Positions 2,684 through 63,050 of a stretch of DNA of 64,000 bases are shown in pieces. Source of the DNA: Mustelus asterias (taxonomy: Eukaryota); assembly GCF_964213995.1 (NCBI RefSeq), contig NW_027590128.1, forward strand, positions 1,364,001 to 1,428,000. The letters run 5' to 3'. The first letter of the stretch is position 1. Every line of letters begins with the position of its first letter. The notes under the pieces were generated by a model. It saw only the letters and a list, made by a program, of their open reading frames with translations. It searched no databases and was not told the DNA's origin. The translations under genes were made by a program, and so were the position numbers.

Positions 2684-2720
2684 CCATTAGCTTTCGGAGC
2701 GCTGCTCCTTCGTCAGATGG
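2684..2720 (-). ncRNA. Minimal type I hammerhead ribozyme (PLE pLTR)
   Basis: Minus strand CCAT-CTGACGA-AGGAGCAGCGCTCC-GAAA-GCTA-ATGG: intact core, stems I and II, palindromic AGCT helix III. Confidence 0.85.
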
Positions 2721-3611
2721 AGTGGAAATGTGCTCTCAAACAGGGCACAGAAACACACAAATCAAGTTACAGAATACTGATTAGAATGCGAATCCCGACA
2801 GCCAGCCAGATCTTAAAGATACAGACAATGTGGGTGGAGGGAGCATTAAGCACAGGTTAAAGAGATGTGTATTGTCTCCAGACAGAACGGCCTGCAAGTC
2901 CAGGAGGCAAGCTGTGGGGGTTACTGATAATGTGACGTAAATCCAACATCCCGGTTTAGGCCGTCCTCATGTGTGCGGAACTTGGCTATCAGTTTCTGCT
3001 CAGCGACTCTGCGTTGTCGTGTGTCGTGAAGGCCGTCTTGGAGAACGCTTACCTGAAGATCAGAGGCTGAATGCCCGTGACTGCTGAAATGCTCCCCCAC
3101 AGGAAGAGAACAGTCTTGCCTGGTGATTGTCGAGCGGTGTCATTGATGAAGACGAACATCTCGCCAAGGCCATCCCCACACACCCACTTCTTGTCTTCAA
3201 ACAACTGCGCAACCTCAAACAGACCATTGTCCGCAGCAAACTACCCAGCCTTCAGGAGAACAGTGACCACGACACCACACAACCCTGCCACAGCAACCTC
3301 TGCAAGACGTGCCGGATCATCGACGCGGATGCCATCATCTCACGTGAGAACACCACCTACTAGGTACACGGTACCTACTCTTGCAACTCGGCCAACGTTG
3401 TCTACCTGATACGCTGCAGGAAAGGATGTCCCGAAGCATGGTACATTGGGGAAACCATGCAGATGCTACGACAACGGATGAATGAACACCGCTCGACAAT
3501 CACCAGGCAAGACTGTTCTCTTCCTGTGGGGGAGCACTTCAGCAGTCGTGGGCATTCAGCCTTGGATCTTCAGGTAAGCGTTCTCCAAGGCGGCCTTCAC
3601 GACACACGACA

Positions 3612-4913
3612 TAAGAACATAAGAACATAAGAAATAGGAGCAGGAGTAGGCCATCTAGCCCCTCGAGCCTGCCCCGCCATTCAATAAGATCATGGCTGAT
3701 CTGACGTGGATCAGTACCACTTACCCGCCTGATCCCCATAACCCTTAATTCCCTTACCGATCAGGAATCCATCCATCCGCGCTTTAAACATATTCAGCGA
3801 GGTAGCCTCCACCACCTCAGTGGACAGAGAATTCCAGAGATTCACCACCCTCTGGGAGAAGAAGTTCCTCCTCAACTCTGTCCTAAACCGACCCCCCTTT
3901 ATTTTGAGGCTGTGTCCTCTAGTTTTAACTTCCTTACTAAGTGGAAAGAATCTCTCCGCCTCCACCCTATCCAGCCCCCGCATTATCTTATAAGTCTCCA
4001 TAAGATCCCCCCTCATCCTTCTAAACTCCAACGAGTACAAACCCAATCTCCTCAGCCTCTCCTCATAATCCAAACCCCTCATCTCCGGTATCAACCTGGT
4101 GAACCTTCTCTGCACTCCCTCCAATGCCAATATATCCTTCCTCATATAAGGGGACCAATACTGCACACAGTATTCCAGCTGCGGCCTCACCAATGCCCTG
4201 TACAGGTGCATCAAGACATCCCTGCTTTTATATTCTATCCCCTTCGCAATATAGGCCAACATCCCATTTGCCTTCTTGATCACCTGTTGTACCTGCAGAC
4301 TGGGCTTTTGCGTCTCATGCACAAGGACCCCCAGGTCCCTTTGCACGGTAGCATGTTTTAATTTGTTTCCATTGAGATAGTAATCCCATTTGTTATTATT
4401 TCCTCCAAAGTGTATAACCTCGCATTTCTCAACGTTATACTCCATTTGCCATATCCTCGCCCACTCACTCAGCCTGTCCAAATCTCTCTGCAGATCTTCT
4501 CCGTCCTCCACACGATTCACTTTTCCACTTATCTTTGTGTCGTCTGCAAACTTCGTTACCCTACACTCCGTCCCCTCCTCCAGATCATCTATATAAATGG
4601 TAAACAGTTGCGGCCCGAGTACCGATCCCTGCGGCACGCCACTAGTTACCTTCATCCAACTGGAAAAACACCCATTTATTCCGACTCTTTGCTTCCTGTC
4701 GGATAGCCAGTCCCCAATCCACTTTAACACATTACCCCCAACTCCGTGTGCCCTAATCTTCTTCAGCAGCCTTTTATGGGGCACCTTATCAAACGCCTTT
4801 TGGAAATCCAAAAACACCGCATCCACCGGTTCTCCTCCATCAACCGCCCTAGTCACATCTTCATAAAAATCCAACATGTTCGTCAAGCACGACTTTCCCC
4901 TCATGAATCCATG
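3612..4913 (-). mobile_element. Young 5'-truncated CR1 LINE with open RT C-terminal ORF
   Basis: Uninterrupted ORF 3711-4913 (HGFMRGKSCLTN, GVPQGSVLGP, KFADDTK); (TAAGAACA)n tail at 3612-3633; GACA duplicated at the junctions. Confidence 0.95.
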
Positions 4914-5210
4914 ACAGCGCAGAATCGCTGAGCAGAAACTGATAGCCAAGTTCCGCACACATGAGGACGGCCTAAACCGGGACGTTGGATTTATGTCACA
5001 TTATCAGTAACCCCCACAGCTTGCCTCCTGGACTTGCAGGCTGTCCTGTCTGGAGACAATACACATCTCTTTAACCTGTGCTTAATGCTCCCTCCACCCA
5101 CATTGTCTGTATCTTTAAGATCTGGCTGGTTGTAGGGATTCGCATTCTAATCAGTATTCTGTAACTTGTTTTTTGTGTCTCTGTGCCCTGTTTGAGAGCA
5201 CATTTCCACT

Positions 5211-5247
5211 CCATCTGACGAAGGAGCAGCGCTCTGAAAGCTAATGG
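5211..5247 (+). ncRNA. Minimal type I hammerhead ribozyme (PLE pLTR)
   Basis: CCAT-CTGACGA-AGGAGCAGCGCTCT-GAAA-GCTA-ATGG; G-U wobble in stem II. Confidence 0.85.
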
Positions 5248-5375
5248 TATTTGCTACCAAATAAACCTGTTGGACTTTAACCTGGTGTTATTAAAACTCT
5301 TACTGTGTTCACCCCAGTCCAACGCCGGCAACTACACATCATGTCTAAGGACAGAGTCAGGTGATGTTACTCAGG

Positions 5376-6087: not shown

Positions 6088-6744
6088 ATCTTTGTACTGA
6101 GATGGAAATTGGCAGTCTTGGTGATTATTCAGATATGAGGTCAGGAGCTCAGTTTAGAGTGAAAGCTGTTATTGAGGCTGGGAACAGTCCGGTTCAGTCT
6201 CAGACAGTTGTCAGGGAGAAGGATGGAGTCAGTAGTTTGGGAGTGGAGTTTGTAGCGGGGACTGAAGAGAAACAATGGTTTTCTTCTTCCCAGTAGTTAA
6301 ATGGAGCACATTGCTGTTCATTCAGTACTGGATATCGGACAGGGCAGGACAGTGTGCGAGTTGGAGGGGAATTTGGAGATTATGGTGTCCGCATAGACCT
6401 GGTCCTCCTTGGTGTAGAAGTTGAAGGTTTGGAGAATTTTGTCAAAGTTTTAGAATTCAAAGTAGAAAATCACCTCCTTTGTTCCTGCGTCTTTCACCTC
6501 TCTCCCCTCCCATAGAGGCCAGAGTCTTGTGTAGGCCCAGACTGGGTGGTAAGTTCCCTTCCCTAAAGGACATTAGTGAACCAGTTGGGTTTTTGTGACA
6601 ATCCAGGAGCTTCCATGGTCACTTTTTCCTCGTGTCGACCCCACAGATTACCAGATTCATTCAGCTCAATTTCATAACCTGCCTTTGTGTTTTTGTGGGC
6701 ACTCTCTCACTCCCTTTTCTCTGTTTTAAATTAATTTCATGAGG

Positions 6745-7280
6745 TATTGAAAGAGGAGGATATGTAGTCAGGAAACTCAAACCAAACATTCACATCAGAT
6801 GGAGTTGTCCAAATCATGGGATTTTGAACATTGAAGGAAAAAGCACTGTTCACAGTGGGGAAAAACCGTACACATGTTCTATGTGTGGATGAGGCTTCAA
6901 CCAATCATCTAACCTGTCGAGACACGATCACACCGGGGAAAACTGTGGAAACATGAGGACTGTGAGAAGGCCTTCAGTTACCGTCTAAACTGGAAACTCA
7001 GCGACGCAGTCACACAAGGGAGAGGCTGTGAACCGGCTCTGAGTGTGGGTTGTGATTCAATAAGTCAAACAACCAGTTGAAACACCAGCAGCTTCACCTG
7101 GGGGAGAGGCCATTCACCTGCTCTGTATGTGGGAAACAATTCACTCAGTCATCATTACCCATGACACAACAGCGAGTTCACACTGACAAGAGACCTTTTA
7201 AATGCCCAGACTGTGGGAAGTGCTATAAAAGTTCCCAAGAACTGACATCCCATCAATATGTTCACACTGAAGAGAGGCTG
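6745..7280 (+). pseudogene. Degenerate ZNF terminal exon, paralog of ZNF-1
   Basis: Finger remnants [14 protein letters not shown].., [23 protein letters not shown]; stops and frameshifts; upstream 6515-6745 is paralogous to 8040-8554. Confidence 0.85.
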
Positions 7281-7309
7281 GAATTAGGGGAGAGCATCGA
7301 TGATGGAGA

Positions 7310-7840
7310 ATTGTGTGACTGAAGGATATTACAGAGAGAGGAGTGGTCGCAGTCATGGAGAAATTTGGAAACAAGAACGGGAGTTTTTAAATGTTAGTGG
7401 TTCTTAAACACGAACCTTTATAGGTCAGTGAGCACAGGGGTGATGGGTGAACAAGTCTTGAATAATTACACAGACAGCAGAGTTTTGGATGACCTCAGGA
7501 TTGCAGCGAGGCTGAATGTGGGAGGCCAGCAAAGAGTGCTCTGGGAGAGTTAAGTCCAGAGGTAACAAAGGAATGGATGAGAGTTTCTGAACAAGATGAT
7601 TTGAGACTCGGGCGATGTTACTGAGGTGGAAATAGACATTCTGGGTGATGATGAGGATATGTGGCTGGAAGCTCAGTTTGGGATGAGCCAGGACACTGAG
7701 GTTGTGAGAAGTCTGGTTCAGCCTCAGACAGTTGCCAGGGAGAGAGAGTGGAGTCTGTTGTGAGGACTGAAGACAACGGCTTGGTTCTTAATATTCAATT
7801 GGAGGAAGTTTCTGTTCATCCAGTACTGGATGTCAGACAC
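7310..7840 (-). mobile_element. Old L2-type LINE fragment
   Basis: Minus strand of ~7520-7590 resembles ETLIHSFVTSGLNSPRALFAGLP (L2 RT C-terminal motif). Confidence 0.55.
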
Positions 7841-8127
7841 GTCAGGATGGTGTGTTAATGAAAAGGAACTTGGAGATGATGGTGTTCCCATACGCCTGCT
7901 TCATTGCTCCATCGAGGTGGTGGAGGTTGTGGGAGTTTGAAATATTTGAAATTCCTTTTTTCCTGTGCTGCCCAATTCTGTCTCGCCCTCTCCTACTTCT
8001 GTCTCTCTGCCTCTTCCCCCTCGATCTCTTCTCCCAGATTGTCCAGAGTCTTGTGTCACCCCTGACCAGGGAGCAGGTTTCCTTCCCTGAAGGACATTGG
8101 TGAATCAGTTGGTTTTTTTTTAAAGTT

Positions 8128-8405
8128 AAAAGTTTATTTATTAGTCACAAGTAGGCTTACATTAACACTGCAATGAAGTTGCTGTGAAATTCCCCTAGTC
8201 GCCACATTCCAGCACCTGTTCGGGTCAATGCAACTAAGCAGCATGTCTTTCGGACTGTGGGAGGAAACCGGAGCACCCGGAGGAAACCCACGCAGACACG
8301 GAGAGCATGCAAACTCCCCACAGACAGTGACCCAAGCTGGGAATCAAACACGGGTCCCTGGCACTGTGAGGTAGCAGTGCTGATCACTGTGCCCCCGTGC
8401 CGCCC
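8128..8405 (-). mobile_element. HE1-like SINE (tail type A)
   Basis: Reverse complement of the 1733-2027 family. Confidence 0.85.
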
Positions 8406-8665
8406 AATGACAATCCGGCAGTTTCCATGGTAACTTTTTCCCAGTGCCGGCCCCACAAATGACCAGATTCATTCAGCTCAATTTCACAACCTGCCTTTGA
8501 GTTTCTGTGGGTTCTCTCTCACTGCCTTTTTTCCATTTAAATCAGTTTCACAGGGTTTTAGAAGAGGAGGATTTTGAGTCAGGAAACACAAAGCGAACAT
8601 CACATCAGGATCTGATGGAGTCGCCCAATTTATTGTAACCATTGTATCATGATTGGATTTTGAAC

Positions 8666-9940
8666 ATGGAAGAAAAAAGCATCGATTGCAGTGGGGAGAA
8701 TCTGTACGCGTGTTCTGTGTATGAATCATCTGACCCCACGAACCACAAGTGCAGTCACACTGAAGAGAAGCCGTTGAAATGTGGGGACTGCGAGGAAGGA
8801 TTCCATTCCCCATCTGAACTGGAAATTCACCAGCGAGTTCATGCTGGGGAGAGGCCGTTCACCTGCTCTGTGTGTGGGAAAGGATTCACTCAGTCGTTCA
8901 ACCTGCTGAGACACCGGCAAGTTCACACTGGAGAGAGACCATTCACCTGCTCCAAATGTGGGAAGGGATTCACTCAGTCATCCAATCTGCTGGTACACCA
9001 GAGAGTTCACACCGGGGAGAGGCCATTCACCTGCTCCCAGTGTGGGAAGGGATTCATTCACACAAGCAACCTGCTATCACACCAGCGAGTTCACACTGAC
9101 AAGAGACCTTTTAAATGTCCAGCATGTGGGAAGTGCTTTAAAAGTTCCCGGGAACTGACACGCCATCAGCAAGTTCACACGGAGGAAAGACCTTTTTACT
9201 GTGCAGAATGTGGAAAGGGCTATAAAAGTTCCTGGGAACTGACGTACCACCAACGTGTTCACACTGAGGAGAGACCGTTCAGGTGCTCTCACTGCGGGAC
9301 TGGGTTCAGGCAATCATCTCAACTCACTGTACACCAGCGAATTCACACTGGGAAAAGGCCATTCACCTGCACGGAGTGTGGGAAGGGATTTAGTCGGTCA
9401 TCCCAACTCATGGTGCACCAGCGGGTTCACTCTGGAGAGAGACCTTTCAAGTGCCTCGACTGTGGGAATTACTATAAAAGTTCTGGAGAACTGAAATCCC
9501 ATCAGCATGTTCACACTGACAAGAGACCGTTCAGATGCTCTCACTGTGCAATTGGATTCAGGCAATCATCCCATCTCACTGAACACCAGCGAATTCACAC
9601 TGGGGAGAGACCGTTCACCTGCTCCAATTGTGGGAAGGGATTTACTCAGTCCTCCCAACTCATGGCTCACCAGCGGGTTCACACTGAGGAGAGACCTTTC
9701 AAATGCCCAGACTGTGGGAAGTGCTACAAACGATCTGGAGATCTGAGGTCCCACCAACGTGTTCACACTGACGAGAGGCCATTCATGTGCTCTCAATGTG
9801 GGACTGGGTTCAGTCGATCGTCGATACTAATTGAACACCAGCGAGTTCACACTGGGGAGAAGCCATTCACCTGCTCCAAGTGTGGGAAGGGATTCACTCG
9901 GAAATCCAACCTGCTGACGCATCAGCGAATTCATAAGTGA
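8666..9940 (+). CDS. C2H2 zinc-finger protein ZNF-1, 14 tandem fingers, no effector domain seen
   Basis: Open frame with 14 CxxC..HxxxH units and TGERP-like linkers; first in-frame ATG at 8666 after acceptor TTTCACAG (8553); TGA at 9938-9940. Confidence 0.9.
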
Positions 9941-10542
9941 AGGCAGGAGTTAGAGTTTGCTGTTAATCACACCCAGGACTGAACAACATTCATTAGGGTC
10001 CTATTCTGCTGGTGTTCATAAACTGCAGCTCGGTAATAGGTGTTAATGTTCTGGATAAAATTAAACTGAATCAGTTTTGTGTCAAACAATATGTGGCAAA
10101 TGTTTTTAATATTAACACAAGTTAGTTGCTTTTGAAGTGAGCTTCCTCTGGACCAAGATTTACTCTGGCTACTTGTTTCCTGTTGTTTCCTTTTTTTTAC
10201 ACTGCTTGGATAGGTATGATCCCATTCAATAAGAACAATATGCAACGAGAGAGTTCGGGGAGTCCATTCAGCCCTCATCATTTGACTGTCAAGTTGACTT
10301 GGACGAAATGCATCATCTGTAAGGCTGTATTTATATCACATTCATAGCCCATCCACCAAGTCACAGCTCATACTGAGCCAGAGGATCTACCATTTTACAG
10401 CCATAGGGGTGTCACACCATGCCAAATATATGAACATTTCCATTAGTGGATGGAAATGATGGCAGTCTGGGGGCCCAATTGGAGACACAAGCACAGAAAT
10501 ATGGGGGAATTGACCATGTTAATGTGGGGATTTGTCACAAAC

Positions 10543-11320
10543 CTTCGTCTTCATCAATGACATGTTGAAGGCTCCAGAGGAGATGCCGTAGCTTCTCCGC
10601 TCCGGGGAAGTACTGGACGACAAAGGGTATTCTGTCCACCATGTCCCGTGTTTGTCTTCTGAGAAGGTCGGTGCGGTTTATCGCTGTGGCACGTCGGAAC
10701 TGTCGATCGATGAGTTGAGCGCCATATCCTGTTCTTTATGAGGGCATCTTTCAGCGCCTGGAGGTGTCTGTTGCGATCCTCCTCATCCGAGCAGATCCTG
10801 TGTATACGGAGGGCTTGTCCATAGGGGGTGACTTCTTTAACGTGTTTAGGGTGGAAGCTGGAGAAGTGGAGCATCGTGAGGTTATCCATGGGCTTGCGGT
10901 ATAGTGAGGTGCTGAGGTGACCGTCCTTAATGGAGATGTGTGTGTCCAAGAATGCAACCGATTCCGGAGAGTAGTCCATGGTGAGTCTGATGGTGGGGTG
11001 GAACTTGTTGATGTCATCATATAGTTGTCCCAGTGATTGTTCACCATGAGTCCAAAGGAAGAAAATGTCATCAATGTATCTAGTGTATAGCATCGGTTGA
11101 AGGTCCTGTGCGGTGAAGATGTCTTGTTTGAACCTGTGCATGAAGATGTTGGCATATTGAGGTGCAAATTTGGTCCCCATGGCTGTTCCGTGTGTCTGGA
11201 TGAAGAACTGGTTGTTGAAGGTGAAGACATTGTGGTCCAGGATGAAGCGGATGAGTTGTAAAATTGCATCTGGAAACTGGCAGTTGTCGGTGCTGAGCAC
11301 TGAAACGGCCTGAGTGGCCT
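10543..11320 (-). mobile_element. Penelope-like element reverse transcriptase fragment
   Basis: QTHGTAMGTKFAPQYANIFM, YTRYIDDIFFLW, FLDT, TSLYRKP, RIHRICS motifs typical of PLE RT. Confidence 0.9.
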
Positions 11321-11359
11321 GCTCATAGTTCATTTGTTCATATATTCTTATGTCTCTTT

Positions 11360-12730: not shown

Positions 12731-14149
12731 AAAACACTTTGTTTTCTTCTCTCCTTTTTCTTCTCATTCTGGGGTTAAATTGGGGACTTGCAGCAACTGA
12801 AGGGAAAGGAAGTGAATTCAGGGAGCTGCAGACTCTGGAAAGGTTGGCCCAGGTATCTCTCTCCCTCTTAAAGACATTGCCATCCTTTGCTTCCTCAACT
12901 TGTCACATTTATTTGTCTGGTTAAGAGGATGGTCTCTTTCCTAATGTTCACAATTTAAAGGGGTGATTTCCCGAGGAAATAGCTGAAATTTAAGGGGCAG
13001 TAAATTAATATAGGACAGAGATGTGTGCAGTCTTGTAAGATGATACAAATTAGATATATTATGCATGGTCCAGTAATAAAGTTCATTTTTTATTATTTTT
13101 AGTTTTCTTAATACTGTAACTAAGTCGTTTATTTTCAGTAATCGGGTTATTGTATCACACAAGGAGTCCATTCAGCAACTCAAGTCCATGCTAACTCTCT
13201 GTAGAGCAATCCAGTCAGTCCCATTCCCCCTTAAGTTCATAAGATATAGGAGCATAATTAGGCTATTTGGCCCATCGAGTCCACTCCGCCATTCAATCAT
13301 GGCTGATATGCTCCTCATCCCGTCTGTATCCCTGTTCCCCTGCCAGTCTATTTTGACTGCCCATCTAATTTCATTTTGAAATATTGAATGTATCAAAATG
13401 CACCGCCCTCATAGCCAAACAATTGATATTCAAGAACGTTCACTGTTGAAATAGTGTTCTATCTCATAGCCTTGCTGTACTTCTATTTATTAAACTGGTC
13501 CCCTATGTTACATACATTTTACTTCACTAAGTATATTTAGGCATTTAGACTAGCAGCCTGCATGAAGATATCTCAGTACTGGAGAAGAAGCAGTGAGCAT
13601 GGATTTGTTGATCAGCATGAATCAACACCTTCAGGAGAATTGGAAGGGTGTGTTATATATACAGCAGAGTGAGGATACAGGGATAGTGTGTGGGATGGAG
13701 ATGTACAGATCCAGAGGAATGAGAAAGGAAGAAATGTTCCACAGAAACTAGAATTGTCTATTCTGAATTTCTGTTTGATACTGACAGTGATGACTTTTGT
13801 AAACTCATTTTACAGGAAGTTATAAGGGGAAGATTTGCTGCCAGCAATCTCAAAACATGTTAAGGCTTAATAGAGTCACTCAAATGATCAGAACCTGAAT
13901 ATCATCAGTCCTTGAATCTCGAAGAAGAAATATTTATCTGTTTTTTCTGTCACATCAGTGTGACTGGAAAGGCACCAAGAAACACAGAACTGAGTGAGAG
14001 TGTCCAGTACCCTGATTGTCAAAAGACCAGTTACACAGACTGCAAAAATATCACATCATTTACAGCGGGGACAGACGTACACATGCTCTATGTGTGGATG
14101 AGGATTTAACTGATTGTTAAACCTGGAAAGACACAAGGACATCCACACC

Positions 14150-15364
14150 ATGGAGAAACCGGGGAAAGATGAGGATTGTGGTAAGGAATTCCATATCCCG
14201 TCTGCACTGCAAACTCATCAACATATTCGCACTGGGGAGAGACTGTTCCCCTGCTCCAAGTGTGGGGAAGGAGACTGCTCCCCATCTGCCCTGAAGATTC
14301 ATCAATGCAGCCACACTGGGGAGAGGCCCTTCATCTGCTCTGAGTGTGGGAAGGGTTTTCTCCAGGCAGCCGACCTGTGGAATCACCAAGCAGTTCACAG
14401 TAGGGAGAGGCTGTACACCTGCTCTGAGTGTGGGAAGGGATTCACTCAGTTATCCCACCTGCTGACACACCAGCAAGTTCACACTGGGGAAAAGCCGTTC
14501 AACTGCTCTGAGTGTGGGAAGCAATTCAATCATTCATCTGAACTTTTGAATCACCAACAAATCCACACCGGAGAGCGACCATTCACCTGCTCCGACTGTG
14601 GAAAGGGTTTCACTCAGTCATCTCACCTGCAGATACACCAGCGAGCCCACACTAAGGAGAGGCCTTTCAACTGCTCTGAGTGCGGGAAGTGTTTTATTCA
14701 ATTATCACACCTAGTGACTCACCAGGGAGTCCACAGGAGGGAGAGGCTGTTCCCCTGCTCCGAGTGTGGGAAGCGTTTTATTCAGTTATCACACCTAGTG
14801 ACACACAAAGGAACACACACAAGGGAGAGGCCATTCAGCTGCCCCGAATGTGGGAAACGTTTTATCCAATCGTCACACCTAATGTCACACCAGGGAGTTC
14901 ACAGCAGGGAGAGGCCATTCGTCTGCTCCGAGTGTGGGAGGCGTTTTATTCAATCATCCCACCTAGTGTCACATCAGGAGGTTCACACCAGGGAGAGGCC
15001 ATTTACCTGTTCCGAGTGTGGCAGGGGATTCATTCAGTTATCCGACCTGCAGAATCACCAGCAAATTCACACCGGGGAGAGGCCGTTCACCTGCTCTGAG
15101 TGTGGGAAGGGATTCACTCGTTCAGCTAACCTGCAGGCACACCAACGTGTTCACACCAGGGAGAGACCATTCACCTGCTCTGAGTGTGGGAAAGGATTCG
15201 CTCTTTCATCTTATCTGCAGAGTCACCAGCAAGTTCACACTGGAGAGAGGCCGTTTATCTGCTCTGAGTGTGGAAAGGGATTCATTCAGTCATCCCACCT
15301 GCAGACACACCAACGAGTTCACAAGGATTCACAAAGGGATTCACTCAGTCATCCCACCTGCTGA
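14150..15364 (+). CDS. C2H2 zinc-finger protein ZNF-2, 13 fingers plus one degenerate
   Basis: Open frame; Kozak-like CACCATGG at 14150; acceptor TTTTACAG at 13815. Confidence 0.9.
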   Translation: MEKPGKDEDCGKEFHIPSALQTHQHIRTGERLFPCSKCGEGDCSPSALKIHQCSHTGERPFICSECGKGFLQAADLWNHQAVHSRERLYTCSECGKGFTQLSHLLTHQQVHTGEKPFNCSECGKQFNHSSELLNHQQIHTGERPFTCSDCGKGFTQSSHLQIHQRAHTKERPFNCSECGKCFIQLSHLVTHQGVHRRERLFPCSECGKRFIQLSHLVTHKGTHTRERPFSCPECGKRFIQSSHLMSHQGVHSRERPFVCSECGRRFIQSSHLVSHQEVHTRERPFTCSECGRGFIQLSDLQNHQQIHTGERPFTCSECGKGFTRSANLQAHQRVHTRERPFTCSECGKGFALSSYLQSHQQVHTGERPFICSECGKGFIQSSHLQTHQRVHKDSQRDSLSHPTC

Positions 15365-15694
15365 GACACCAGTAAGTTCACAAGTGATGACAGGGGTTGG
15401 ATTCTGTTGTTATTGCTGCTGTTAATCACATCCAGGACTGAACCATGTTCATTCTGACAGTTGGTGAAGTGGGAGGGTTGGAGAGTTTCTTTCTGTTGGA
15501 CTGGCCGGTCTCACAACTTTGTTTCCAGTGGGTTGATCTCTTTGAGTTTGGGAGAGCACATTTCCACTGAAATGATTCGCAAAAAAAAAAGCTGATGAAT
15601 GTGCCAACTCGACACAGCCACCCAAGGCTGGAATCGAACCCGGGTCCCTGGGGCTGTGAGCCAACTGGTCTAACCACTGTGCCACCCATATCAT

Positions 15695-18116: not shown

Positions 18117-18119
18117 GGG

Positions 18120-19495: not shown

Positions 19496-20462
19496 CATTG
19501 CTGATGAGAATTTTAATTTACTGACTTGGAAATTAGTTCTCGGGAATAGTCATTCTGAAAATGACCATTAAAATGTGTTTTAATTTACCCCATAATGCCA
19601 GATTTCAGTTTGCATTTCAAAATTGAATTGAGAATGTCTGGGAGCAAATGGTAAAATGAGGTTTGAGACACCAGCTGCAATTATTTTCTGTGACTGATGA
19701 TACCTTTGTGCCTGTGCAGGAGGTAATTCCGCTGCTGTTGTGGCACAAATAAAATGGAGCCTTTCCTCGGAACAGGCCCATGTTAATGGTCACTGTGGTG
19801 TTTCATTGGTGAGCAGAGCACATGTGCCCATTGTGGTAACAACAGAGTCAGTGGGGCTGCACGTCCCCTGACTTGGAAGGAAAATAATTGACTCCTTGAT
19901 TGTACTCTCAATCTGCACATGGTCTGGAGGACTGAATCCAGCTGGAGGGAGAGGGAGCTGAGCTCAGAGTGGAGATGGGGCAATGAGTTTGATTTCAGCT
20001 CAGGGACAAGAGAGAGTGTGTGGGATGGGGATTACAGCTCAAGATAAATAAGATGGAGAAATGTTTCGTGGAAACTGAAATTGTCAGTTCTGAAGTAGTT
20101 TTTTAAAACTCTTTTTGCAGGGAACTAGAAGAGGAGGATTCACAGACATTCGATTCATCATGACCTGCTTTTGACAGTGATTGCTTATGATTGCTTTTGA
20201 CAGTGGAGGGAGAAATAGTTCCCTGTTTTGTCAGTGGAAGAAATTTTCAAAATTCAATGTGACAGAAAAAGAACTGAGACACACACACACACACCCAAGT
20301 GAGAGCGCTCCAGTGAACTGACTGTGGATAGAGCTTTAACCAGTTACACAGCCTGAAAAACACCACACCATTCACAGTGGGGAGAAACCATACATGTGGT
20401 CTGTATGTGGATGAGGCTTCAACTAATCAACCAACCTGGAGAGACAGAAGGACACCAGCACC

Positions 20463-21455: not shown

Positions 21456-22340
21456 TAGTCTGACAATATTTGGTTTGTTTCTGCTGACATTAACAATCGC
21501 GACAACTGGCTGAAGTTTAATATTCTGAGATGTCACTGATTTTCAGGGCTGTTGTGTCCCTTTTTAAAAGCACCATCTGTGATTTTTTAATTTCAGGAAC
21601 TCTCAACAGGAACTTGTTTATAATAAGTTTATGAACTTTTCCTGCAATCTTAAATTGATGTTTGGTGCAAACTGTACAATTCAGTGTCTGAAAGGTTCCA
21701 CTGCTTAAGATTTCCAATTAGAAAATGCTGACAATTCTTACTGACTTGCACATTATTCACAGTGACACTTCCACGATCACATTTAATTATCAAGGAACAT
21801 AAAACAATGCACAGATACTTGTTAGCACTGAACTTGAATATTGCTGAAAAGAGAGACCTGTTGCTGAATCTCTTCATCATGCACTCATCAGGACAGAAGA
21901 ATGCCAAATTTCAAATGATCACAATTGGTGGACTGTCATTGACTTGAAGCATCACCATGGAGAAATCAATAGAAGATTGTAGGTTTCTCAAGCTTCTGGG
22001 AAATTCATAAAAGGTGCAAGGCTTGAAAATTCTCCTTTTGTTTGCAGGGAAAGGATCGCTGCGTATAAATGTAAGTTGCTTCTCACAACTGTAACTATGA
22101 ACTCGACTGATTATCTTCAATTGAATATGAGTGCAGCTATTGGCACACTCAGGATTGTTCAGCAAGTGCTGCCCAGTCTGTAATCACATTAAACATTGTA
22201 TTTTTGGTTTTGTGAGTGTCGGCTGCAAAAAAAATCACTACCTATTCTGCCAAATCAAGGAACATGCTGTTTTATTCTATCAGCCACTCACTGGGATGTA
22301 CAGCCTAGTACCCAGCACTGCACTGGCAAAGATATTCATA

Positions 22341-22550
22341 GTAAGAAGTCTAACAACACCAGGTTAAAGTCCAACAGGTTTATTTGGAAGCAAAAGCCAC
22401 TAGCTTTCGTCAGGTGGGTGGGAGCCTGACAAAGGAACAGCGTTCCGAAAGCTAGTGGCTTTTGCTTCCAAATAAACCTGTTGGACTTTAACCTGGTGTT
22501 GTTAGACTTCTTACTGTGTTTACCCCAGTCCAACGCCGGCATCTCCACAT
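22341..22550 (+). mobile_element. Short fold-back Penelope pLTR insertion
   Basis: 14-bp TSD CAAAGATATTCATA (22327-22340, 22551-22564); ~68-bp inverted arms; hammerhead-like CTGACAA..GGAAC/GTTCC..GAAAGCTA at 22426-22454. Confidence 0.9.
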
Positions 22551-23062
22551 CAAAGATATTCATACCCAGCCTTGCTCATTTGTGTTGGAGGCTGAATGCC
22601 TTTTTGGTGCTGGCAGCTAATTAGTGGAAAGTATCACTCGTGTAACCACGACATAGTCGCAGAATGAAACAGATTAGTGTTCCCTCTGTATTGTGCAGCC
22701 TTGTGATTGTGCTAAAGGCCATCACTTTCAGATCTGAAAAGTGCCTGGGTCAAGGTCAAATTACCCCAGAAAGGGACATTTTCTCTCAAATCTGAAGCAA
22801 CAGGTGAAGCAAATCATTTCACACTGAAACACATCTTCAACGTTGCGGTAGTTTGTTCAGTTACACACTTGGTGGTCACGTGACTCTGGTTGTAGCATTC
22901 CTGAGCCTCATTGGAGGGATTCCTCACATGAGCCGAGTTTGAGGAGAGTATCTCTGGCCTCCAGTGAAGCAGCCGCTGAATCTATTCCTGGAAAAAACAC
23001 ATTTGGAATATTGTGATAATGCTGTCTGAATCCATCAGGACAATTTTGTATTCACTTGGGTG

Positions 23063-36379: not shown

Positions 36380-37694
36380 CCACCAGTATCTATTACAAGC
36401 CCACCAACTCCCACAACTATCTTGACTGCAGTTCTTCACCCCACATCCTGAAAGGACTCCATCCCATTCTCTTCATTCTTTCGCCTCCGCCGCATCTGTT
36501 CTGATGATGCCACTTTCCTAAATAGCGTTGCAGATATGTCTTTCTTCTTCAACCGTTGAGGTTTTCCACCCACTGTTGTTGACAGGGCTCTTGACCATGT
36601 CCGACCCACACCCCAGCCACTGCTCTCACTCCCTCCCCTCCCTCCCAGAACCAGGACAGGGTTCCCCTTGTCTTCACTTTTCACCCAACCAGCCTCCGCA
36701 TTCAAAGGATCATCCTCTGCCATTGCTGCCAATTCCAGCATGATGCCACTACCCAACACATCTTCCCTTTAAGCCCCCCCCCCCACTCCACCATCAGCAT
36801 TCCACAGGCATCATCCTCTCTGGGATACCCTGGTCCACTCCTGCATCCCACCCAACATCCTATCCCCTACCCATGGCACCTTCCTATGCAATAGTAGAAG
36901 GTGCAACATCTGCCAATTTACCTCCTCCCTGTTCACCTCCCGGGTCCTGAACACCCTTTCAGGTGAAGCAGTGCTTCACATGCACCTGCTTCAACCTGGT
37001 CTATTCAATTCGCTGCTCCCAATCCAGTCTACTCTACATTGGAGAGACCAAACACAAATTGGATGACTGCTTTGTTGAACACCTTCACTCCATCCGCAAG
37101 CAGGATCCAGAGCTTCCTGTCACTTGCCCCTTCAACACGCCACCCTGCTCTCCTGCCCACATGTCCGTCCTTGGCCTTTTCCAATGTTCTAGTGAACCCC
37201 AATGAAAATTGGAGGAACAGAACCTCATCTTCCGATTGGGCACTTTACAGCCTTCCAGACTGAACATTGTGTTCAAGAACTTCAGACCATGTTTCTCCCC
37301 TCCACCTTCACCCCATTTCCATTTATTTTATTTCATTTTGTTTCTTCTTTTCATCTCATTCCTCCACTTCATCGTACTTCTTTCTCACTTCCATTTTTCA
37401 ACTTCTTCATTCCTGCTCTTCTTCTCGCCCGCACCCGCCCCCTCCCTCCCACCAACCGCCCCTCCCCCCTCCCCCACCCCTACCAACCCCCCCTCCATTC
37501 AGGGCAAACCATCTGTACCTCTGCTCTACCGTTCTGATTAACACTTTTCATACCTCTCTCAGCCTTCTGCATTCTCCTTTTCATTCCCTTTGTCCAATTA
37601 CAGCACCCCCCTTCCACCCTCATAATATAAATCTTGTCTGATTTTCTTTGCCCTGAGCCCTGATGAGGGGTCATCCAAACTCGAAACGTTGGCT
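36380..37694 (+). mobile_element. Degenerate Penelope-like element, second family (RT end, GIY-YIG, 3' UTR, hammerhead)
   Basis: TSIYYKPTNSHNYLD.., RLRRICSDD, FTCTCFNLVYSIRCSQSSLLYIGETK; ends at the hammerhead. Confidence 0.85.
37656..37694 (+). ncRNA. Minimal type I hammerhead ribozyme (second PLE family)
   Basis: AGCC-CTGATGA-GGGGTCATCCAAACTC-GAAA-CGTT-GGCT; palindromic AACGTT helix III; weak stem II. Confidence 0.75.
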
Positions 37695-42030: not shown

Positions 42031-42252
42031 ATGATGTGGAGATGCCGGCGTTGGACTGGGGTAAACACAATAAGAAGTTTAACAACACCAGCTTAAAGTC
42101 CAACAGGTTTATTTGGTAGTAAAAGCCACACAAGCTGTCGGAGCTCCAAGCCCCTTCACTCACCTGAAGAAGGGGCTTGGAGCTCCGAAAGCTTGTGTGG
42201 CTTTTGCTACCAAATAAACCTGTTGGACTTTAACCTGGTGTTGTGAAACTTC
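42031..42252 (-). mobile_element. Short fold-back Penelope pLTR insertion inside the V1 leader exon
   Basis: 11-bp TSD TTATTGTCCTG (42020-42030, 42253-42263); ~85-bp inverted arms. Confidence 0.92.
42161..42197 (+). ncRNA. Minimal type I hammerhead ribozyme
   Basis: CAC-CTGAAGA-AGGGGCTTGGAGCTCC-GAAA-GCTT-GTG. Confidence 0.8.
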
Positions 42253-42708
42253 TTATTGTCCTGCTCACAGGACGGTCATTTTGAACCTTTGACTGAAATC
42301 CGCCAATCACCATATTAATTGCCCATTTCCATTTCTAGGTGATTATTCCGTTGTTGTTACTCCTTCTAAACCGCTGCGCGTCTGTTGTCTATTTTCAGCG
42401 ATGAGTAACGGTGACTCAGTGTCCCAGTCAGAACCAGGAGTTGAAGCATCAGAGGGTGAAGATTCAGCAACACCCTGCAGTTACTCTGTATCGAGTTTAG
42501 CTACAGTCTATGTCCTGTTCTGGTATCGCCAGTATCCACACCGAGCTCCTCAGTATCTGCTCAGAGCCGAGAGTTATGGATTTACCGATACGGCTCCCGG
42601 CTTTAAACATTTCAGCTGGAATCTCAGCGAGACACAAAGCACTTTTCACTTGTCCATGAAAGATTTGAAGATGACAGATAACGCCGTGCATTACTGTGCA
42701 CTGAGACC

Positions 42709-45514: not shown

Positions 45515-45553
45515 AGTTTTTGTACGAGGATTTCACTCGTTCTCATCACTGTG
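45515..45553 (-). promoter_or_regulatory. Near-consensus 23-RSS of V3
   Basis: Minus strand CACAGTG + 23 nt + ACAAAAACT. Confidence 0.95.
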
Positions 45554-45857
45554 AGACTCTGTGCACAGTAATAGACCGCGGTGTCAGACAGCCGCAGCTC
45601 CGAAATAGTCACTCGGTACAAATTGTCTGACTGCTGGACTGAATCAGAAAACCGAGTCCGAGCGAAATCCGCCTTTAATTCAAAACCGCCCTTCTTGTCT
45701 CTCCGGACTGCAAACTCAGGCTGTTTTCCTGGGTATTGACGATACCAAAATAAATAATAAGCATCGTCGGTAAAGGTGCAGTTTAAAGTGACATCTTCTC
45801 CCTCTGTCCGTGTGAGTGAGGATTCCCGCTGAGGAACAGAATCTCCATCGCTCAGAT
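45554..45857 (-). CDS. TRAV/DV: TCR alpha/delta-type V exon V3, open reading frame (absent from the ORF track)
   Basis: After TTTCAG acceptor: LSDGDSVPQRESSLTRTEGEDVTLNCTFTDDAYYLFWYRQYPGKQPEFAVRRDKKGGFELKADFARTRFSDSVQQSDNLYRVTISELRLSDTAVYYCAQS, no stops. Confidence 0.92.
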
Positions 45858-46548
45858 CTGAAACACACGGTTAAAGAAAGGAAAAACATTGATTAAAAGT
45901 TCAATTGAACTAAGGGAGAAAATTCACTGACAGTGCAACATAAAAATATGTATTGAATGTATTGAATCATACCACATTCTCTCCAACTGATCTATGTTCC
46001 CGTTTACAGTCCCCTGGAGATTCCTCCCTCTCGCCTCTTCTCAATGCAGTTGTCCCTTTCTTCCTCAGCTGTTTAGTTTAGTTTACCTTTAAATAAGTAT
46101 TTGCTCCTCTCCTCAAGTGTTCATTGTGTTAATATGAGTCACATTCTACCCAACTCTTTCTAAAGATGTTTCTCTCCGATTCCCAGTTGATCTATTTGTT
46201 TCATTAGAATTTTGGGACATATATTTGGATTCCTCCTACAAGTGGAATCATCCTCTCCCCGTCCACCACACCAATCCTCGTTATCATTATAAATAGATCA
46301 GTCAGGTTTGCGTTAGTTTCTTTGGTCAGTCGAGAAAGTAATCATAATCTTGCATTCTGATAGCTCTCATCTCCCAATCCGAGTACCATTTCTCGAAATC
46401 GCCTTTTCAGTGTGCTTTTCGAATCTATTTTCAAAAGACTAAAACCACTCGCAAGAATTCATTTGTCCAATACCTGTATAACATGAATGTCCTGCTTTTC
46501 AACTTTATTCCTCCAGAAAATAACTCATTTTTAAAGTATTAAACTCAT

Positions 46549-46855: not shown

Positions 46856-46881
46856 GAGCTCCTTTCTGCGCTAATTCATGA

Positions 46882-46957
46882 CAGTAAGAACTCTCACAAC
46901 ACCAGGTTAAAGTCCAACAGGTTTATTTGGTAGCACAAGCTTCCGGAGCGCTGCTCC
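46882..46957 (-). mobile_element. Truncated Penelope pLTR fragment
   Basis: CAGTAAGAACTCTCACAACACCAGGTTAAAGTCCAACAGG; stops within the hammerhead. Confidence 0.8.
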
Positions 46958-50270: not shown

Positions 50271-50599
50271 CGAGAGGTGTAATATTCACTGCATTCATTC
50301 AATGTGAGTCCAACAGCACGGGGCGTTCATGTGTGTTCTGCTCCCCTCAGATCACAATGGCCGAAAGGTCGCAGTTTTCCCCATTGCGCCTTTGCAGCAA
50401 CTGCCTCACGGTTTAGTGCGTCCCTCAATCGGTAGTCCTGCGCCCTGGAATGTGTTGTCTGCAACACTCGATCGAGGACAATTCTTTGCACATGAAGATC
50501 AACTGGTTTCGGGAAGGCAAATAGTGTATTTTACCGAGTTGAAAATTCTCCAACAGCAATTGGTGCTTGTCTCGGTTTGTCCCTGGGAACAGCCCGTAG

Positions 50600-50741
50600 A
50601 CATGATGAGGAGATGCCGGCGTTGGACTGGGGTGAACACAGTAAGAAGTCTCACAACACCAGGTTAAAGTCCAACAGGTTTATTTGGCAGCAAATACCAT
50701 GAGCTTTCGGAGCGCTGCTCCTTCGTCAGATGGAGTGGAAA
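50600..50741 (-). mobile_element. Solo Penelope pLTR fragment
   Basis: Near-identical to the reverse complement of 5202-5343. Confidence 0.9.
50697..50733 (-). ncRNA. Minimal type I hammerhead ribozyme
   Basis: Minus strand CCAT-CTGACGA-AGGAGCAGCGCTCC-GAAA-GCTC-ATGG. Confidence 0.85.
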
Positions 50742-54529: not shown

Positions 54530-54820
54530 TTGTATTTGATTTATTATTGTCATGTGTATTAGTATGCAGTGAAAAGTATTGTTTCTTGCGCGCTATACAA
54601 ACAAAGCATACCGCACATAGAGAACAGTAAGAAGGCTCAAAACGCCAGGTTAAGGTTTATTTGGAATCACGAGCTTTCGGAGCGCTGCTCCTTCATTACG
54701 TGAGTGGAAAGGTAGGTTTCACAAACACGGCATTACACGCACATAGAAAAGGAAAGGAGAGATTGCAGAATGTAATGTTACAGTCATAGCTAGGGTGTAG
54801 AGAAAGATCAATTTAATTAA
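54530..54820 (-). mobile_element. Rex1-type tail with nested Penelope pLTR fragment (~54625-54735, mutated hammerhead core)
   Basis: Flanks match 39730-39885; insert minus strand CAC-GTAATGA-AGGAGCAGCGCTCC-GAAA-GCTC-GTG. Confidence 0.75.
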
Positions 54821-55085: not shown

Positions 55086-55123
<38 letters not shown>

Positions 55124-57079: not shown

Positions 57080-59065
57080 ATTCAGCACAAAAGGACCCAG
57101 GAATTGATTCAGAAGGGAAAAAATAGAGTGTGAAAGTAAGAAGGCGGGAAACATAACAAATAGTTGATCCATTTGTGGGCATTTTCGAAAAAATATTTAG
57201 ACTCTAAACTGGTCGCTACAGATTGGAGGGTAGCTAATATACGCCCGCCAGTCAAAAAGGGAGGTAGAGAGAAATAGGGTGAACCATAAGGCAAAGAGCC
57301 GAACATTAGAACTAGGAAATTGCTCGAATCAATTATTAAGGATTTCGTAACTCAGCATTTGGAAGGCAGTGGTAAAATCAGACGAAGTCAACATGGATTT
57401 GCAAAGGGGAAATCATGCTTGGCAAATCTATTGGAATTGTGTGAGAATGTAACTAGTAGAGGTGACCAAGGAAAACTGGTGAGTATGGGTTATTTAGACT
57501 TTAAAATGCTTTCGGCAAGGTCTCATATAGCGTACGACCATAAACGTGGCATGGATACTGTATTGAGCTGGATAGAAAGCTGCTTAGCAGATAGGAAGCA
57601 AAGAGTTGGCAGAAATGAGTGTTTTTCCAATTGGCTGGTAGTGACCAGTGGGGTACCGCAGGGATCCACGCTAGGAGCCCAACTGTTCTTATTATGTACA
57701 ATTGATTTCAAAGAGGGAACTAAATGTGTTTTCTCCAATTTGCAGGTGACGCAAAGTTAGGTGAGAGGGTGAGCTCTGAGAAAGATGCAGCGATGCTTCA
57801 GCCTGATTTAAACAGGCAGAGTGAATGGACATATGCATCGAAGATGCAGTATAATGTGGGCAAATGCGAGATCATCCACTTCGGAGGCAACAATAGGACG
57901 GCAGATTATTATTTGAATAAATTGAGAGGTGAATATTCAGCGACAGCTTGGCATCCATGTGTATGGAAACAAATTGAAACATGCTACCGTGCAAAGGGAC
58001 CTGGGGGTCCTTGTGCATGAGACGCAAAAGCCCAGTCTGCAGGTACAACAGGTGATCAAGAAGGCAAATGGGATGTTGGCCTATATTGCGAGGGGGATAG
58101 AATATAAAAGCAGGGATGTCTTGATGCACCTGTACAGGGCATTGGTGAGGCCGCAGCTGGAATACTGTGTGCAGTATTGGTCCCCTTATATGAGGAAGGA
58201 TATATTGGCATTGGAGGGAGTGCAGAGAAGGTTCACCAGGTTGATACCGGAGATGAGGGGTTTGGATTATGAGGAGAGGCTGAGGAGATTGGGTTTGTAC
58301 TCGTTGGAGTTTAGAAGGATGAGGGAGGATCTTATGGAGACTTATAAGATAATGCGGGGGCTGGATAGGGTGGAGGCGGAGAGATTCTTTCCACTTAGTA
58401 AGGAAGTTAAAACTAGAGGACACAGCCTCAAAATAAAGGGGGGTCGGTTTAAGACAGAGTTGAGGAGGAACTTCTTCTCTCAGAGGGTGGTGAATCTCTG
58501 GAATTCTCTGCCCACTGAGGTGGTGGAGGCTACCTCGCTGAATATGTTTAAAGCGCGGATGGATGGATTCCTGATCGGTAAGGGAATTAAGGGTTATGGG
58601 GATCAGGCGGGTAAGTGGTACTGATCCACGTCAGATCAGCCATGATCTTATTGAATGGCGGGGCAGGCTCGAGGGGTAGATGGCCTACTCCTGCTCCTAT
58701 TTCTTATGTTCTTATTAGACAGGGTAAATTCAGAAAGATTATCCCAGAAGGCTGGGGAGTCCAGAACTAGGGGGTCATAGTCTGAGGATAAGGGGTAAAA
58801 CCTTTAGAACTGAGGTGAAGGAGAAACTTCATCACCCAGACAGTGGTGAATCTGTGGAATTCACTACCACAGGAAGTGATTATGACCAACACGTTGCAGG
58901 ATTTCAAGAAGAAATTAGATACAGCTCTTGGGGCTAAAGGGAGCAAGGGATTTGGAGGGAAGGCACGATCAGGATATTCAATTTGACGATCATCCATGAT
59001 CATAATGAGTGGCGAAGAAGGCTCGAAAGGCCGACAGGCCTTTTCCGGTTTCTATTTTTTCTGTT
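57080..59065 (+). mobile_element. Old CR1 LINE hosting a young CR1 insert
   Basis: SQHGFAKGKSCLANL, GVPQGSTLG remnants; resumes at ~58716 as LDRVN..WNSLPQEV. Confidence 0.85.
57963..58715 (+). mobile_element. Young CR1 3' fragment, near-identical to 3612-4372
   Basis: Peptide GNKLKHATVQRDLG..GDQAGKWY differs at only a few residues from the 3711-4913 copy; same tail. Confidence 0.95.
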
Positions 59066-60441: not shown

Positions 60442-60730
60442 TTTAAGTTTATTTATTTGTGTCACAGGTAGGCTTACATTAATACTGCAATAATGTCACT
60501 GTGAAAATCCTCTAGTCGTCACAGTCCGGCGCCTGTTCCAGTACATTGATGTAGAATTTAGCTTGGTCAATGCACCTAACCAGTACATCTTTCAGACTGC
60601 AGGAGGAAACCGGAGCAGACACGGGGGCAACATGCACACTTCGCACAGATAGTGACCCAAGTCAGGAATCGAACCCGGGTCCCTGGTGCTATGATGCAGC
60701 AGTGCTAACCACTATGTTAATGTCCCGCCA
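60442..60730 (-). mobile_element. HE1-like SINE (tail type A)
   Basis: Family match. Confidence 0.8.
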
Positions 60731-61267
60731 ATCTGGGTTTAGATAGGAAGGCGAGAAAGAACATACTTGTTATAGATGGGGTGCACCAAAAGTTCACCAG
60801 ACTGATACTTGGGATTTAAGCATTGTCCTTTGAGGAGAGATTGAGGTGTGCATTCAATTAAATTCTGAAGAATGGGAGATCTCATTGAAAGATATAAAAT
60901 TCTGACAATTGCAGGATTATGACCCAGCAGTACTGAAGGAACTGCCGATATATTTCCAAGTCGGGATGGTGAGTGACTTGGAGGCTGAATCTCCTTTTGA
61001 TGGTGTCCTCAGGTATCTATTGCCCTTGTGTTTTTATCGTGGTAATGGCTGTGGCTGGGGGAAGTATTGTCTGGTGCTCTGGAAACACGAGTTCAAATCC
61101 CACCAACGGTAACAGGTGGAATTTAAATTTAATTAATAAAAATGTAGAATTGAAAATTCGGCTGAATAATAGAGAACTTAAGAAAACTGTCATCCGTTGT
61201 TGCAAAAGCACATTCTGCGCACCAATGTTGTACCAATGCCCACTGGAGTTTGGAAGAAAATGGGGGT

Positions 61268-61648
61268 TCTTATAGAAACGCATACAATTATGAAAGGAAT
61301 AGATAAGATAGAAGCAAGGAGGTTGTTTCCATGGCAGATGAAATTAGAACTAAGGGACAAGATCTCAAAATAAAGATGAGGAGATTTTGGGCTGTGTTGA
61401 GGAGGAACCTCTTCACTTAAATGGCTGTGAATCTATAAATCCCTGCCCAGTGAAGCAGTTGAGGCTACATCGTTAAACGTTTTTAAGGCAAAGATAGATT
61501 TTTGAGCAGTAAAGGAATTCAGGGTTATGGTGAGCGGGCGGGTAAGCGGAGCTGAGCCCATGAAAAAATCAGCCATGATCTTATTGAATGGCGGAGCAGG
61601 CTCGGAGGGCCAGATGGCCTATTCCTGCTTCTAGTTTTTATGTTCTTT
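61268..61648 (+). mobile_element. CR1 3' fragment
   Basis: Paralogous to 58330-58715. Confidence 0.75.
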
Positions 61649-62827
61649 CAGAAAGGAAATCTGCCGACAACCTGGACTATGTGTGAGACAAGACCCAGAG
61701 AAATGTGGCCGACATTTAGCTATCTTCTGAAATGTTTAGTGAGACAAGAGGCGAGAGGCTGCAGCAACCACATGGGGTGGAAGAATATAAATAACTCGTC
61801 ATCTCTTACATCTTCCAGCCCTCATGCAAAGACATCAATCTGAAACCTTAACTCGGTTTCTCACTTGCACAGTTACTGGCTGGCATGATGCAAGCAGCGT
61901 TTCCTGTTTTTGTCTGAAATGCTGCACTTTGGCCTCTTACGTTCACGCTGGTTTCTTCCCTGAAAAGAAATGTGTGGCTCATTTCGAGAATTCCAACGCA
62001 AAGCCTGTTTTCATCCTCACTCGCCCTGCCTACGAGTCCCTCCTTAGCCTGCTGCAATGCTCCACTGAAGCCCCAAGGGTACTCTTTAAAAATAAGGGGT
62101 CGCACGTTTAGGAGAGGAAGAGTGGGGAGGTTTTCCTCTCAGAGGGTCATGTGTCCCTGGAAGTCCCTCCCTCAGAAGGCAGTGGAAGCAGTCTTTCAAT
62201 ATTTTTAAAGGCAGAAGGAGCTAGATTCTTAGTAAACAAGGAGTGTGAAAGGTGATCAGTGTTGGCAGAAGCTTATAATGAGATCGGCCATAATCTTATT
62301 TACTGGCAGAGCAGGCCGGAAGTGACCAACTCCTACTTCTCAGTAGCCTGTATGTTACTGTATACATATTAAAATTTCGCGGTGGCTTGGTAAGGCGCAC
62401 GTGTAAGAGACGTAGCAAGAACTGTTCCTGGAATCGAAGATGAGCAAGTCGGGTTTACATTGCCAATTGTTAGGGTTTGGGATTCATTGTCTCAAAACCA
62501 GAGTAAACATTTTCCGTGGTGACTTTCGAAAGAGAATGATTACAAAATCCAAAATATAACATGTCGAGGGACATGTGCCAACGGTTTTTTTTTAGCTCAT
62601 TGAGATAGCAAGCATGCGCTCGTTAGGCCGAATTGCCTCGTTCTTTAATGTATGAACCGGATGGGTGACAGGATTGACTGGAGTGCAACACTTTCATTTG
62701 ATTCACTAATAGTTGCTGCCTGAAGAATCGGTTAAACAGAAACTTGTTAATTCTTGGATTCTTTCTCAATAATTTTCATTCATTGGGCTATGAGTATTAT
62801 TCGCAAGGCCAAAAATTGTTGCTAGTC

Positions 62828-63050
62828 CGAAATGCAAATTACTGCGGATTCTATAATCCAAAACAAAAACAAAACATTCTGGAATATCTCAGTGGGTCTG
62901 ACAGCATCTGCGGAGAGAGAATAGAGCCAAAGTTTCGAGTCTCGATGACGATTCGTCAGGGCCATCCGGACTCGAAACGCTAACACTATTCCCTCTTCAC
63001 AGATGATGTCAGAGCTGCAGAGCTTTTCCAGCATTTTCTGGTTTTGTATT
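62828..63050. mobile_element. Old fold-back element derived from the second PLE family, with hammerhead remnant (62925-62963, minus)
   Basis: Imperfect inverted arms around the centre; minus strand GGCC-CTGACGA-ATCGTCATCGAGACTC-GAAA-CTTT-GGCT resembles 37656-37694. Confidence 0.65.

Follow-up and report, generated by a model that had tools for sequence, protein, structure and literature searches.

What are the hammerhead ribozymes scattered through a 64,000-nucleotide stretch of the Mustelus asterias genome (contig NW_027590128.1, positions 1,364,001 to 1,428,000 of the forward strand; hereafter the window), and which RNA, if any, do they cut? A sequence-only reading of this DNA had listed nine motifs or relics, assigned them to two families of Penelope-like elements (PLEs; here families A and B), and proposed that about five may still self-cleave and could cut host pre-mRNAs transcribed through them in the sense direction. 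We consider it probable that these are minimal type I hammerheads residing in the pseudo-long terminal repeats (pLTRs) of both PLE families and likely acting on the element's own transcript, with the dispersed copies being neutral by-products. The anatomy of the motifs, their covariation, abundance, neutral decay and lack of strand bias, and two preferred 5' ends of the copies carrying them were observed directly.

All nine stretches were found in the sequence as described. Our descriptor required the core CUGANGA, zero or one extra base, GAAA, a palindromic N15.2-N16.2, U16.1 and an H17 other than G, with stems I and II of at least 3 bp each. It matched five places in the window (2716 -, 5215 +, 37660 +, 42164 + and 50729 -), compared with two matches in all among 300 dinucleotide-preserving shuffles of the window (mean 0.007). 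As judged from sequence, the estimate of about five intact copies appears right. The motifs that passed were 2684..2720 (-; stem I CCAU/AUGG, stem II GGAGC/GCUCC, CUA triplet, cleavage predicted between 2688 and 2687), 5211..5247 (+; intact core in which 10.1-11.1 is a G.U wobble, cleavage predicted after 5243), 42161-42197 (+; cleavage predicted after 42194) and 50697-50733 (-; CUC triplet), all of family A, and the family B motif 37656..37694 (+; AGCC/GGCU, ACGU palindrome, GUU triplet); the CUGANGA, GAAA and UH (H not G) core was present in five of the nine noted motifs. The four relics had broken cores or stems: 22397-22417 (-) was without stem II, 22426-22454 (+) had G8 changed to A and was without the 5' strand of stem I, 54668-54702 (-) had lost C3 and G5, and 62925-62963 (-) had one stem II base and the palindrome broken. 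In 22397-22417, exactly stem II was missing, joined via the repeated GAA that flanks the hairpin, and the sister arm retained it. Self-comparison of the window showed that the nine motifs stand as seven insertions rather than nine: 2684 and 5211 sit on the two arms of a single insertion flanked by a 14-bp target-site duplication (2616-2629 and 5344-5357), and 22397 and 22426 likewise share one insertion as its two arms. Three further partial arms lay beyond the noted nine, at 42028-42158 (-), 46874-46957 (-; a family A pLTR fragment beginning inside the hammerhead) and 62946-63051 (+).

Helix III proved, as proposed, to be only a palindrome, AGCU in family A and ACGU in family B, with a G-C to C-G swap between the families. 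We compared 181 different family A copies that retain a complete core; because of the searches used to fetch them, this set is biased toward intact copies. In these copies, the unpaired base between A9 and G10.1 was A in 180, and the G10.1-C11.1 pair was G-C in 168 and G.U in 11. Self-cofolding of lone family A motifs gave stem-swapped duplexes, not a helix III dimer, short helices and tertiary contacts being poorly modelled by such folding. An Rfam scan of the window returned no hammerhead family match up to E 10; matches to mir-879 and mir-2114 at 42.1 kb were far under their thresholds and were rejected as due to a fold-back hairpin.

The assignment to pLTRs of two PLE families was upheld, family A being tied to an intact element and family B lying near GIY-YIG relics. 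Copies in long open frames were found by searching the genome with the endonuclease, and one of these (L071) is an intact family A parent with direct pLTRs at 3192-3322 and 6208-6338, each carrying the hammerhead. Between them lies a 912-codon open frame with reverse transcriptase (RT; PF00078, E 6.7e-10), a linker zinc finger and GIY-YIG, the last matched by PF01541 at E 6e-4 on the endonuclease fragment and not reported on the whole 912-codon protein. In family A the motif occurs about 210 bases behind the stop of the GIY-YIG open reading frame (ORF) and, in full-length elements, again ahead of the start codon, the ATG following about 100 bases behind the predicted cut. Family A translations contain a CX4CXXC linker between RT and endonuclease, and a CX2-5CXXC linker finger is a criterion for Neptune and Nematis type PLEs (PMC8557442). 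Family A would thus be a Neptune-type PLE, a clade assignment made from motifs only, with the linker finger shared by Nematis. Family B arms lie 400-700 bp behind GIY-YIG relics at three loci. In the window, a decayed family B endonuclease relic (36957..37244 +; tblastn with the family A ORF, 33% identity, E 2e-7) ends 412 bases upstream of 37656, and related DNA with the same layout precedes family B arms in L113 and L244. A hammerhead in both pLTRs was seen for family A (L071), and for family B only downstream of endonuclease relics; the family B copies (37656, 62925) are older than family A. The family A pLTR also occurs in contigs of four runs from four other organisms, which shows its presence only, not transcription, ends or strand.

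The proposed covariation of the stems is real but comprises few independent, subfamily-level changes. An alignment of 19 hand-picked distinct sequences, two of them family B, has 93.8% of its cells paired, with both partners varying in 7 of 11 pairs; control structures slid along the same alignment reach 32-46% pairing. Across the 181 family A copies, pair I.1 was U-A in 107 and C-G in 67, pair II.3 was A-U in 125, G.U in 46 and G-C in 9, and the remaining pairs were mostly near-invariant; in the first 100 matches listed, a hand count of pair 2.1-1.1 gave 40 U-A, 57 C-G, 2 U.G and one mismatch. On this comparison of sequences, the covariation is a handful of events in the history of active elements that many copies inherited, and it shows selection on master elements, not on dispersed copies.

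Exact pattern matches across the 3.68-Gb genome put family A at 20,267 copies of its 28-base core, 91,745 matches to a degenerate intact-hammerhead pattern and 175,868 copies of a pLTR 28-mer behind the ribozyme, with no matches to reversed-pattern controls for family A. A family B pattern composed from the two window copies had 1,626 exact matches. About 9,000 copies in Xenopus and 4,000 in coelacanth were named as remarkable (PMC4209133), and the 91,745 family A matches exceed both in a comparison that is rough, as the descriptors differ. With about 10^5 young family A copies, a cellular role becomes testable by base-by-base, per-subfamily counts of insertion ends.

Such ends carry the case for cleavage. 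After removal of duplicates, we mapped the 5' ends of 185 arms for which upstream sequence was sufficient and the alignment spanned the pLTR block. Short copies mostly start shortly ahead of the ribozyme. In this set, 58 arms began 2-17 bases before C3, compared with nine in the next 16 bases upstream, and 22 began inside the ribozyme; relative to the predicted cut, there were no starts at -5 to -1 and 22 at 0 to +8. The main peak falls on CCACT, a sequence conserved across subfamilies that resembles an initiator. We infer that this peak marks the transcription start, 6-7 bases before the core. Initiator-like elements have been described in PLE pLTRs (PMC3846280, PMC2377424).

The second preferred end is the predicted cut. 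Genome-wide patterns for the AUGG subfamily, which demanded a break in the consensus with two non-consensus bases upstream, counted 926 starts at the cut, 324 three bases before it and 464 three bases after it. Inspection of the first matches showed true junctions in 18/20, 8/10 and 6/10, respectively, the rest being mutations or small deletions and two of the 18 cut-site junctions being duplicates of one event. Corrected counts were about 830, 260 and 280, a ratio of about 3 to 1 on both sides; each pattern spans two positions, such that 0 and -1 are not distinguishable. Very short fold-back inserts numbered 5,517. By hand count, an arm started at the cut in 20 of 50 listed junctions of this kind (9 of AUGG and 11 of GUG type), several of them after filler bases, and an arm crossed the cut in 11; among 15 fetched junctions, seven showed an arm at the cut. 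Copies starting at the cut are roughly a few percent of the total. On these end positions, we favor, with some reserve, cleavage of the element's own RNA by the ribozyme in vivo as the source of the excess. On the same footing, it seems somewhat likelier than otherwise that well over a thousand copies derive from ribozyme-cut RNA, with weak, dimer-dependent hammerheads cutting in the germ line and the cut RNA serving as template beside a larger uncut class that starts ahead of the ribozyme. We found no publication that treats PLE hammerheads of sharks or places insertion ends at the cut, supplements and most subscription papers being outside the scope of that search, and the excess at the cut would go beyond what was found in print.

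Several observations weigh against in vivo cleavage. In the unbiased set only 5 of the 185 arms start at 0 to +2, a sample too small to show a peak at the cut, and an apparent start peak at +4 was set aside, as four of its seven arms were alignment artefacts of a near-palindrome. The genome-wide counts cover three two-base windows in one subfamily, with patterns unequal in length and degeneracy. The 5' ends of 30 copies whose ORF start is intact were scattered; only one of these copies began at most one base from the cut, and for several no pLTR could be aligned upstream. For a PLE of Anolis, the one active PLE tested, the ribozyme was dispensable for insertion in vitro, and no RNA-seq ends were detected at the cut (PMC11167929). 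Finally, AT microhomology accounts for some AUGG junctions.

This last point bears on the strongest alternative, in which the hammerhead is real but the peak at position 0 comes from a pause of RT at the three-way junction, from template switching driven by microhomology or from an additional transcription start. The commonest AUGG junctions do use a 2-base AT overlap, the surroundings are rich in palindromes (AAGCUU, AAAAGCUUUU, AAAUAUUU), and the excess is only about threefold. Against this, GUG subfamilies without the AT overlap also peak, often after unrelated filler bases, several position-0 starts adjoin plain genomic flank, and starts move with the position of the cut instead of keeping a constant distance from the block downstream; RT stalling at the stem I base would, we expect, leave ends at +4 and not at 0. 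We regard a peak made without cleavage as the less probable explanation.

If cleavage of the element's own RNA is the source, the cycle may run as follows. Transcription from the initiator-like CCACT, 6-7 bases ahead of the core, would place one ribozyme at the 5' end of the PLE RNA, and read-through transcripts would carry a second copy at the 3' end. The two copies could pair via AGCU, perhaps assisted by protein, and in a minority of templates cleave after GCUH. Reverse transcription would begin at the pLTR end or tail, as in the Anolis element PAc, and run to the transcription start or to the cut. Mostly uncut RNA would be copied, which would account for the numerous arms starting immediately ahead of the ribozyme, and in a few percent of events copying of the 3' cleavage product would give arms beginning at the scissile bond, the two arms usually being joined head to head.

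The same motifs inside genes offered a view of the proposed cutting of host pre-mRNA in sense, which appears unlikely. For the intragenic sample, CUB or spectrin exon matches on the same strand served to locate 11 host genes, from whose interior 1.4 Mb was taken; the descriptor found no third hammerhead family in it. It held 143 family A arms (69 sense, 74 antisense), 57 of which pass the descriptor, and the approximately 20 intact sense copies per Mb could in principle meet partners within one long pre-mRNA. A preprint also reports that Xenopus retrozymes are under-represented in introns (10.64898/2026.07.22.740005). Intact copies were nonetheless as common in sense as in antisense (29 vs. 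28), and the sense ones were no more decayed, with 7 of 519 core bases changed compared with 14 of 533 in antisense ones. In the 81 arms spanning the ribozyme, 21 of 1,052 core bases and 55 of 2,807 bases in a 35-base flank had changed (2.0% vs. 2.0%), the fastest-decaying core bases being the CpG guanines G8 and G12 (10/162). Solo family A arms were 10 sense and 16 antisense (p 0.33), and one of 76 family B arms was intact, too few for a strand test.

An inverted partner lay within 3.5 kb of 117 of the 143 arms, and the fold-back inserts of the window have predicted hairpins of -96 to -164 kcal/mol vs. about -12 for the ribozyme fold, such that most arms are predicted to be trapped in long fold-back duplexes. 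Intact same-strand copies with the same palindrome stand 37 and 48 kb apart in the window, and minimal hammerheads examined in earlier work showed no activity as monomers and little as dimers (PMC4209133). With an even strand ratio, neutral decay of the core, fold-back trapping, distant partners and weak or protein-dependent published activity, the proposal that dispersed copies cut host transcripts found no support here: sense copies were not depleted and the core was no better conserved than its flank. The dispersed copies are likely neutrally decaying by-products of insertion that seldom cut host RNA. Three features of the sample temper this neutrality: gene spans were drawn from same-strand Pfam exon matches and not from gene models, the strand test was small (95% interval for the sense share of intact arms, 0.37-0.64), and a control with long interspersed nuclear elements (LINEs), at 58 sense and 75 antisense, likewise showed no significant bias (p 0.17). 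With a test of this size and an unbiased control, mild selection on sense copies may be missed. A vertebrate that tolerates about 20 intact sense minimal hammerheads per Mb of gene points to limited activity of such motifs in ordinary pre-mRNA. Three spectrin-repeat genes (L192-L205, L212-L225; 280 kb) held 13 family A arms, none intact, and other genes held many intact arms; fewer young insertions or chance may underlie this.

That the short inserts form an independent retrozyme or short interspersed nuclear element family spreading as small circular RNAs is highly improbable: most copies are short, with little beyond the ribozyme and pLTR end, and animal retrozymes are proposed to derive from PLE pLTRs (10.64898/2026.07.22.740005), but the window contains no tandem arrays of short units, copies there and most intragenic arms being inverted pairs or, in the window, solo, and within each subfamily the short arms match the pLTRs of elements that carry ORFs, grade continuously into long 5'-truncated copies and bear the PLE signature of an inverted arm, a one-sided tail and a 10-14 bp target duplication.

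Much of this anatomy is familiar. The motifs resemble the minimal hammerheads of metazoan PLEs (PMC4209133) in being type I, with a stem I of 4-5 bp, an unpaired base between 9 and 10.1, G10.1-C11.1, a palindromic 15.2-16.2 and no helix III, in forming several covarying families per genome and in being found mainly as scattered copies, single or on opposite strands, left by truncated PLEs. Stem II here has 5-6 bp vs. 7-8 bp in schistosome families (PMC4209133). The motif, the palindromic helix III, the extra core base and the opposite-strand pairs were thus already known from that work; the accessible text of this founding paper (Cervera and De la Pena 2014) includes no cartilaginous fish, maps no insertion ends to the cut and describes in vivo evidence for the PLE hammerhead as absent, and its function was later called unclear (PMC8557442). 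Like Neptune-type PLEs (PMC8557442, PMC3846280), the elements have a single RT and GIY-YIG ORF with a CX2-5CXXC linker finger, direct or inverted pLTRs, a one-sided tail and heavy 5' truncation. An inverted 5'-truncated copy, a 30-40 bp tail and a target-site duplication are described for those elements, so the inverted layout with a tail was also known, and no structural difference emerged from the accessible text of those papers. As in the Anolis Poseidon element PAc (Frangieh et al. 2024, PMC11167929), a pLTR hammerhead lies near the ORF start, and genomic copies end at the pLTR end or the tail, the site at which reverse transcription of PAc has been demonstrated to begin. In PAc, however, the ORF starts inside stem II, not about 100 bases behind the cut, and cleavage needed protein, with no RNA ends detected at the cut, whereas genomic 5' ends are enriched at the cut here. 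Animal non-LTR retrozymes (PMC7229834, 10.64898/2026.07.22.740005) share the type I hammerhead, the short non-coding form and a relation to PLE pLTRs but are head-to-tail tandem units, in contrast to the head-to-head or solo truncation products described here.

In the insertion with arms at 2684 and 5211, the inverted 5'-truncated arm (2623..3147 -) comprises the endonuclease end, 3' untranslated region (UTR) and pLTR end without a tail, and is 96% complementary to 4910-5308 and 94% to 3478-3611. The translated PLE body (3141..3611 +) contains the CX4CXXC linker zinc finger and GIY-YIG endonuclease with one in-frame stop (3361-3363); it matches PF01541 at E 6e-4, under the curated cut-off of that family, and is 90% identical to the intact ORF of L071. 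A LINE fragment that is not part of the PLE (3612..4909 -; RVT_1, E 2.8e-24) splits this body and is a nested insert, because the PLE frame resumes beyond it. The 3' end (4910..5343 +) holds the last endonuclease codons, 3' UTR, hammerhead, pLTR end and tail, with an AATAAA at 5260-5265 (+). An AATAAA lies 16-18 bases behind the predicted cut in all family A arms and is among the best-conserved parts of the pLTR.

The short fold-back family A insertion at 22337..22552, with its two broken hammerheads, has a 14-bp target-site duplication and a predicted hairpin of -146.7 kcal/mol. That at 42032..42259 joins the intact hammerhead 42161-42197 (+) to a partial antisense arm, its + arm beginning 7 bases before C3, with an 11-bp target-site duplication and a predicted hairpin of -164.1 kcal/mol vs. 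-11.9 for the ribozyme alone. A solo family A pLTR with a tail (50594..50741 -), carrying the intact hammerhead with the CUC triplet, begins 12 bases before C3, and an older family A pLTR (54624..54732 -), carrying the broken hammerhead 54668-54702, sits in another repeat and has a 10-bp target-site duplication. In family B, the element at 37656..37694 ends directly after stem I, and an old fold-back insertion (62832..63051) comprises the decayed hammerhead 62925-62963 (-) and a partial + arm. Two more family A PLE fragments, from the RT middle and the ORF start (10523-11345 - and 34875-35384 -), have no hammerhead beside them.

Beyond the PLEs, three immunoglobulin V-set exons were found (42293-42928 +, 43703-44098 + and 45466-45870 -). 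A recombination signal whose spacer is 23 bases long follows the exon at 45.5 kb, and a similar one, its heptamer variant, follows that at 42.7 kb; these exons look like V segments of the T-cell-receptor type and adjoin a zinc-finger cluster. Four C2H2 zinc-finger arrays with an 84-bp period lie on the + strand (6800-9940, 14050-15400, 20330-21450 and 30650-31600), some with stops at the array start. Two tRNA genes or pseudogenes identified by Rfam (36224-36296 - and 38461-38533 -) adjoin a segment of about 700 bp that is present three times (35514-36169, 37699-38392 and 38793-39494). LINE copies at 3659-4372 and 57963-58676, inverted and 54 kb apart, are 99% identical, an identity that indicates a very recent LINE family. 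A minisatellite with a 34-bp unit occupies 22991-24750.

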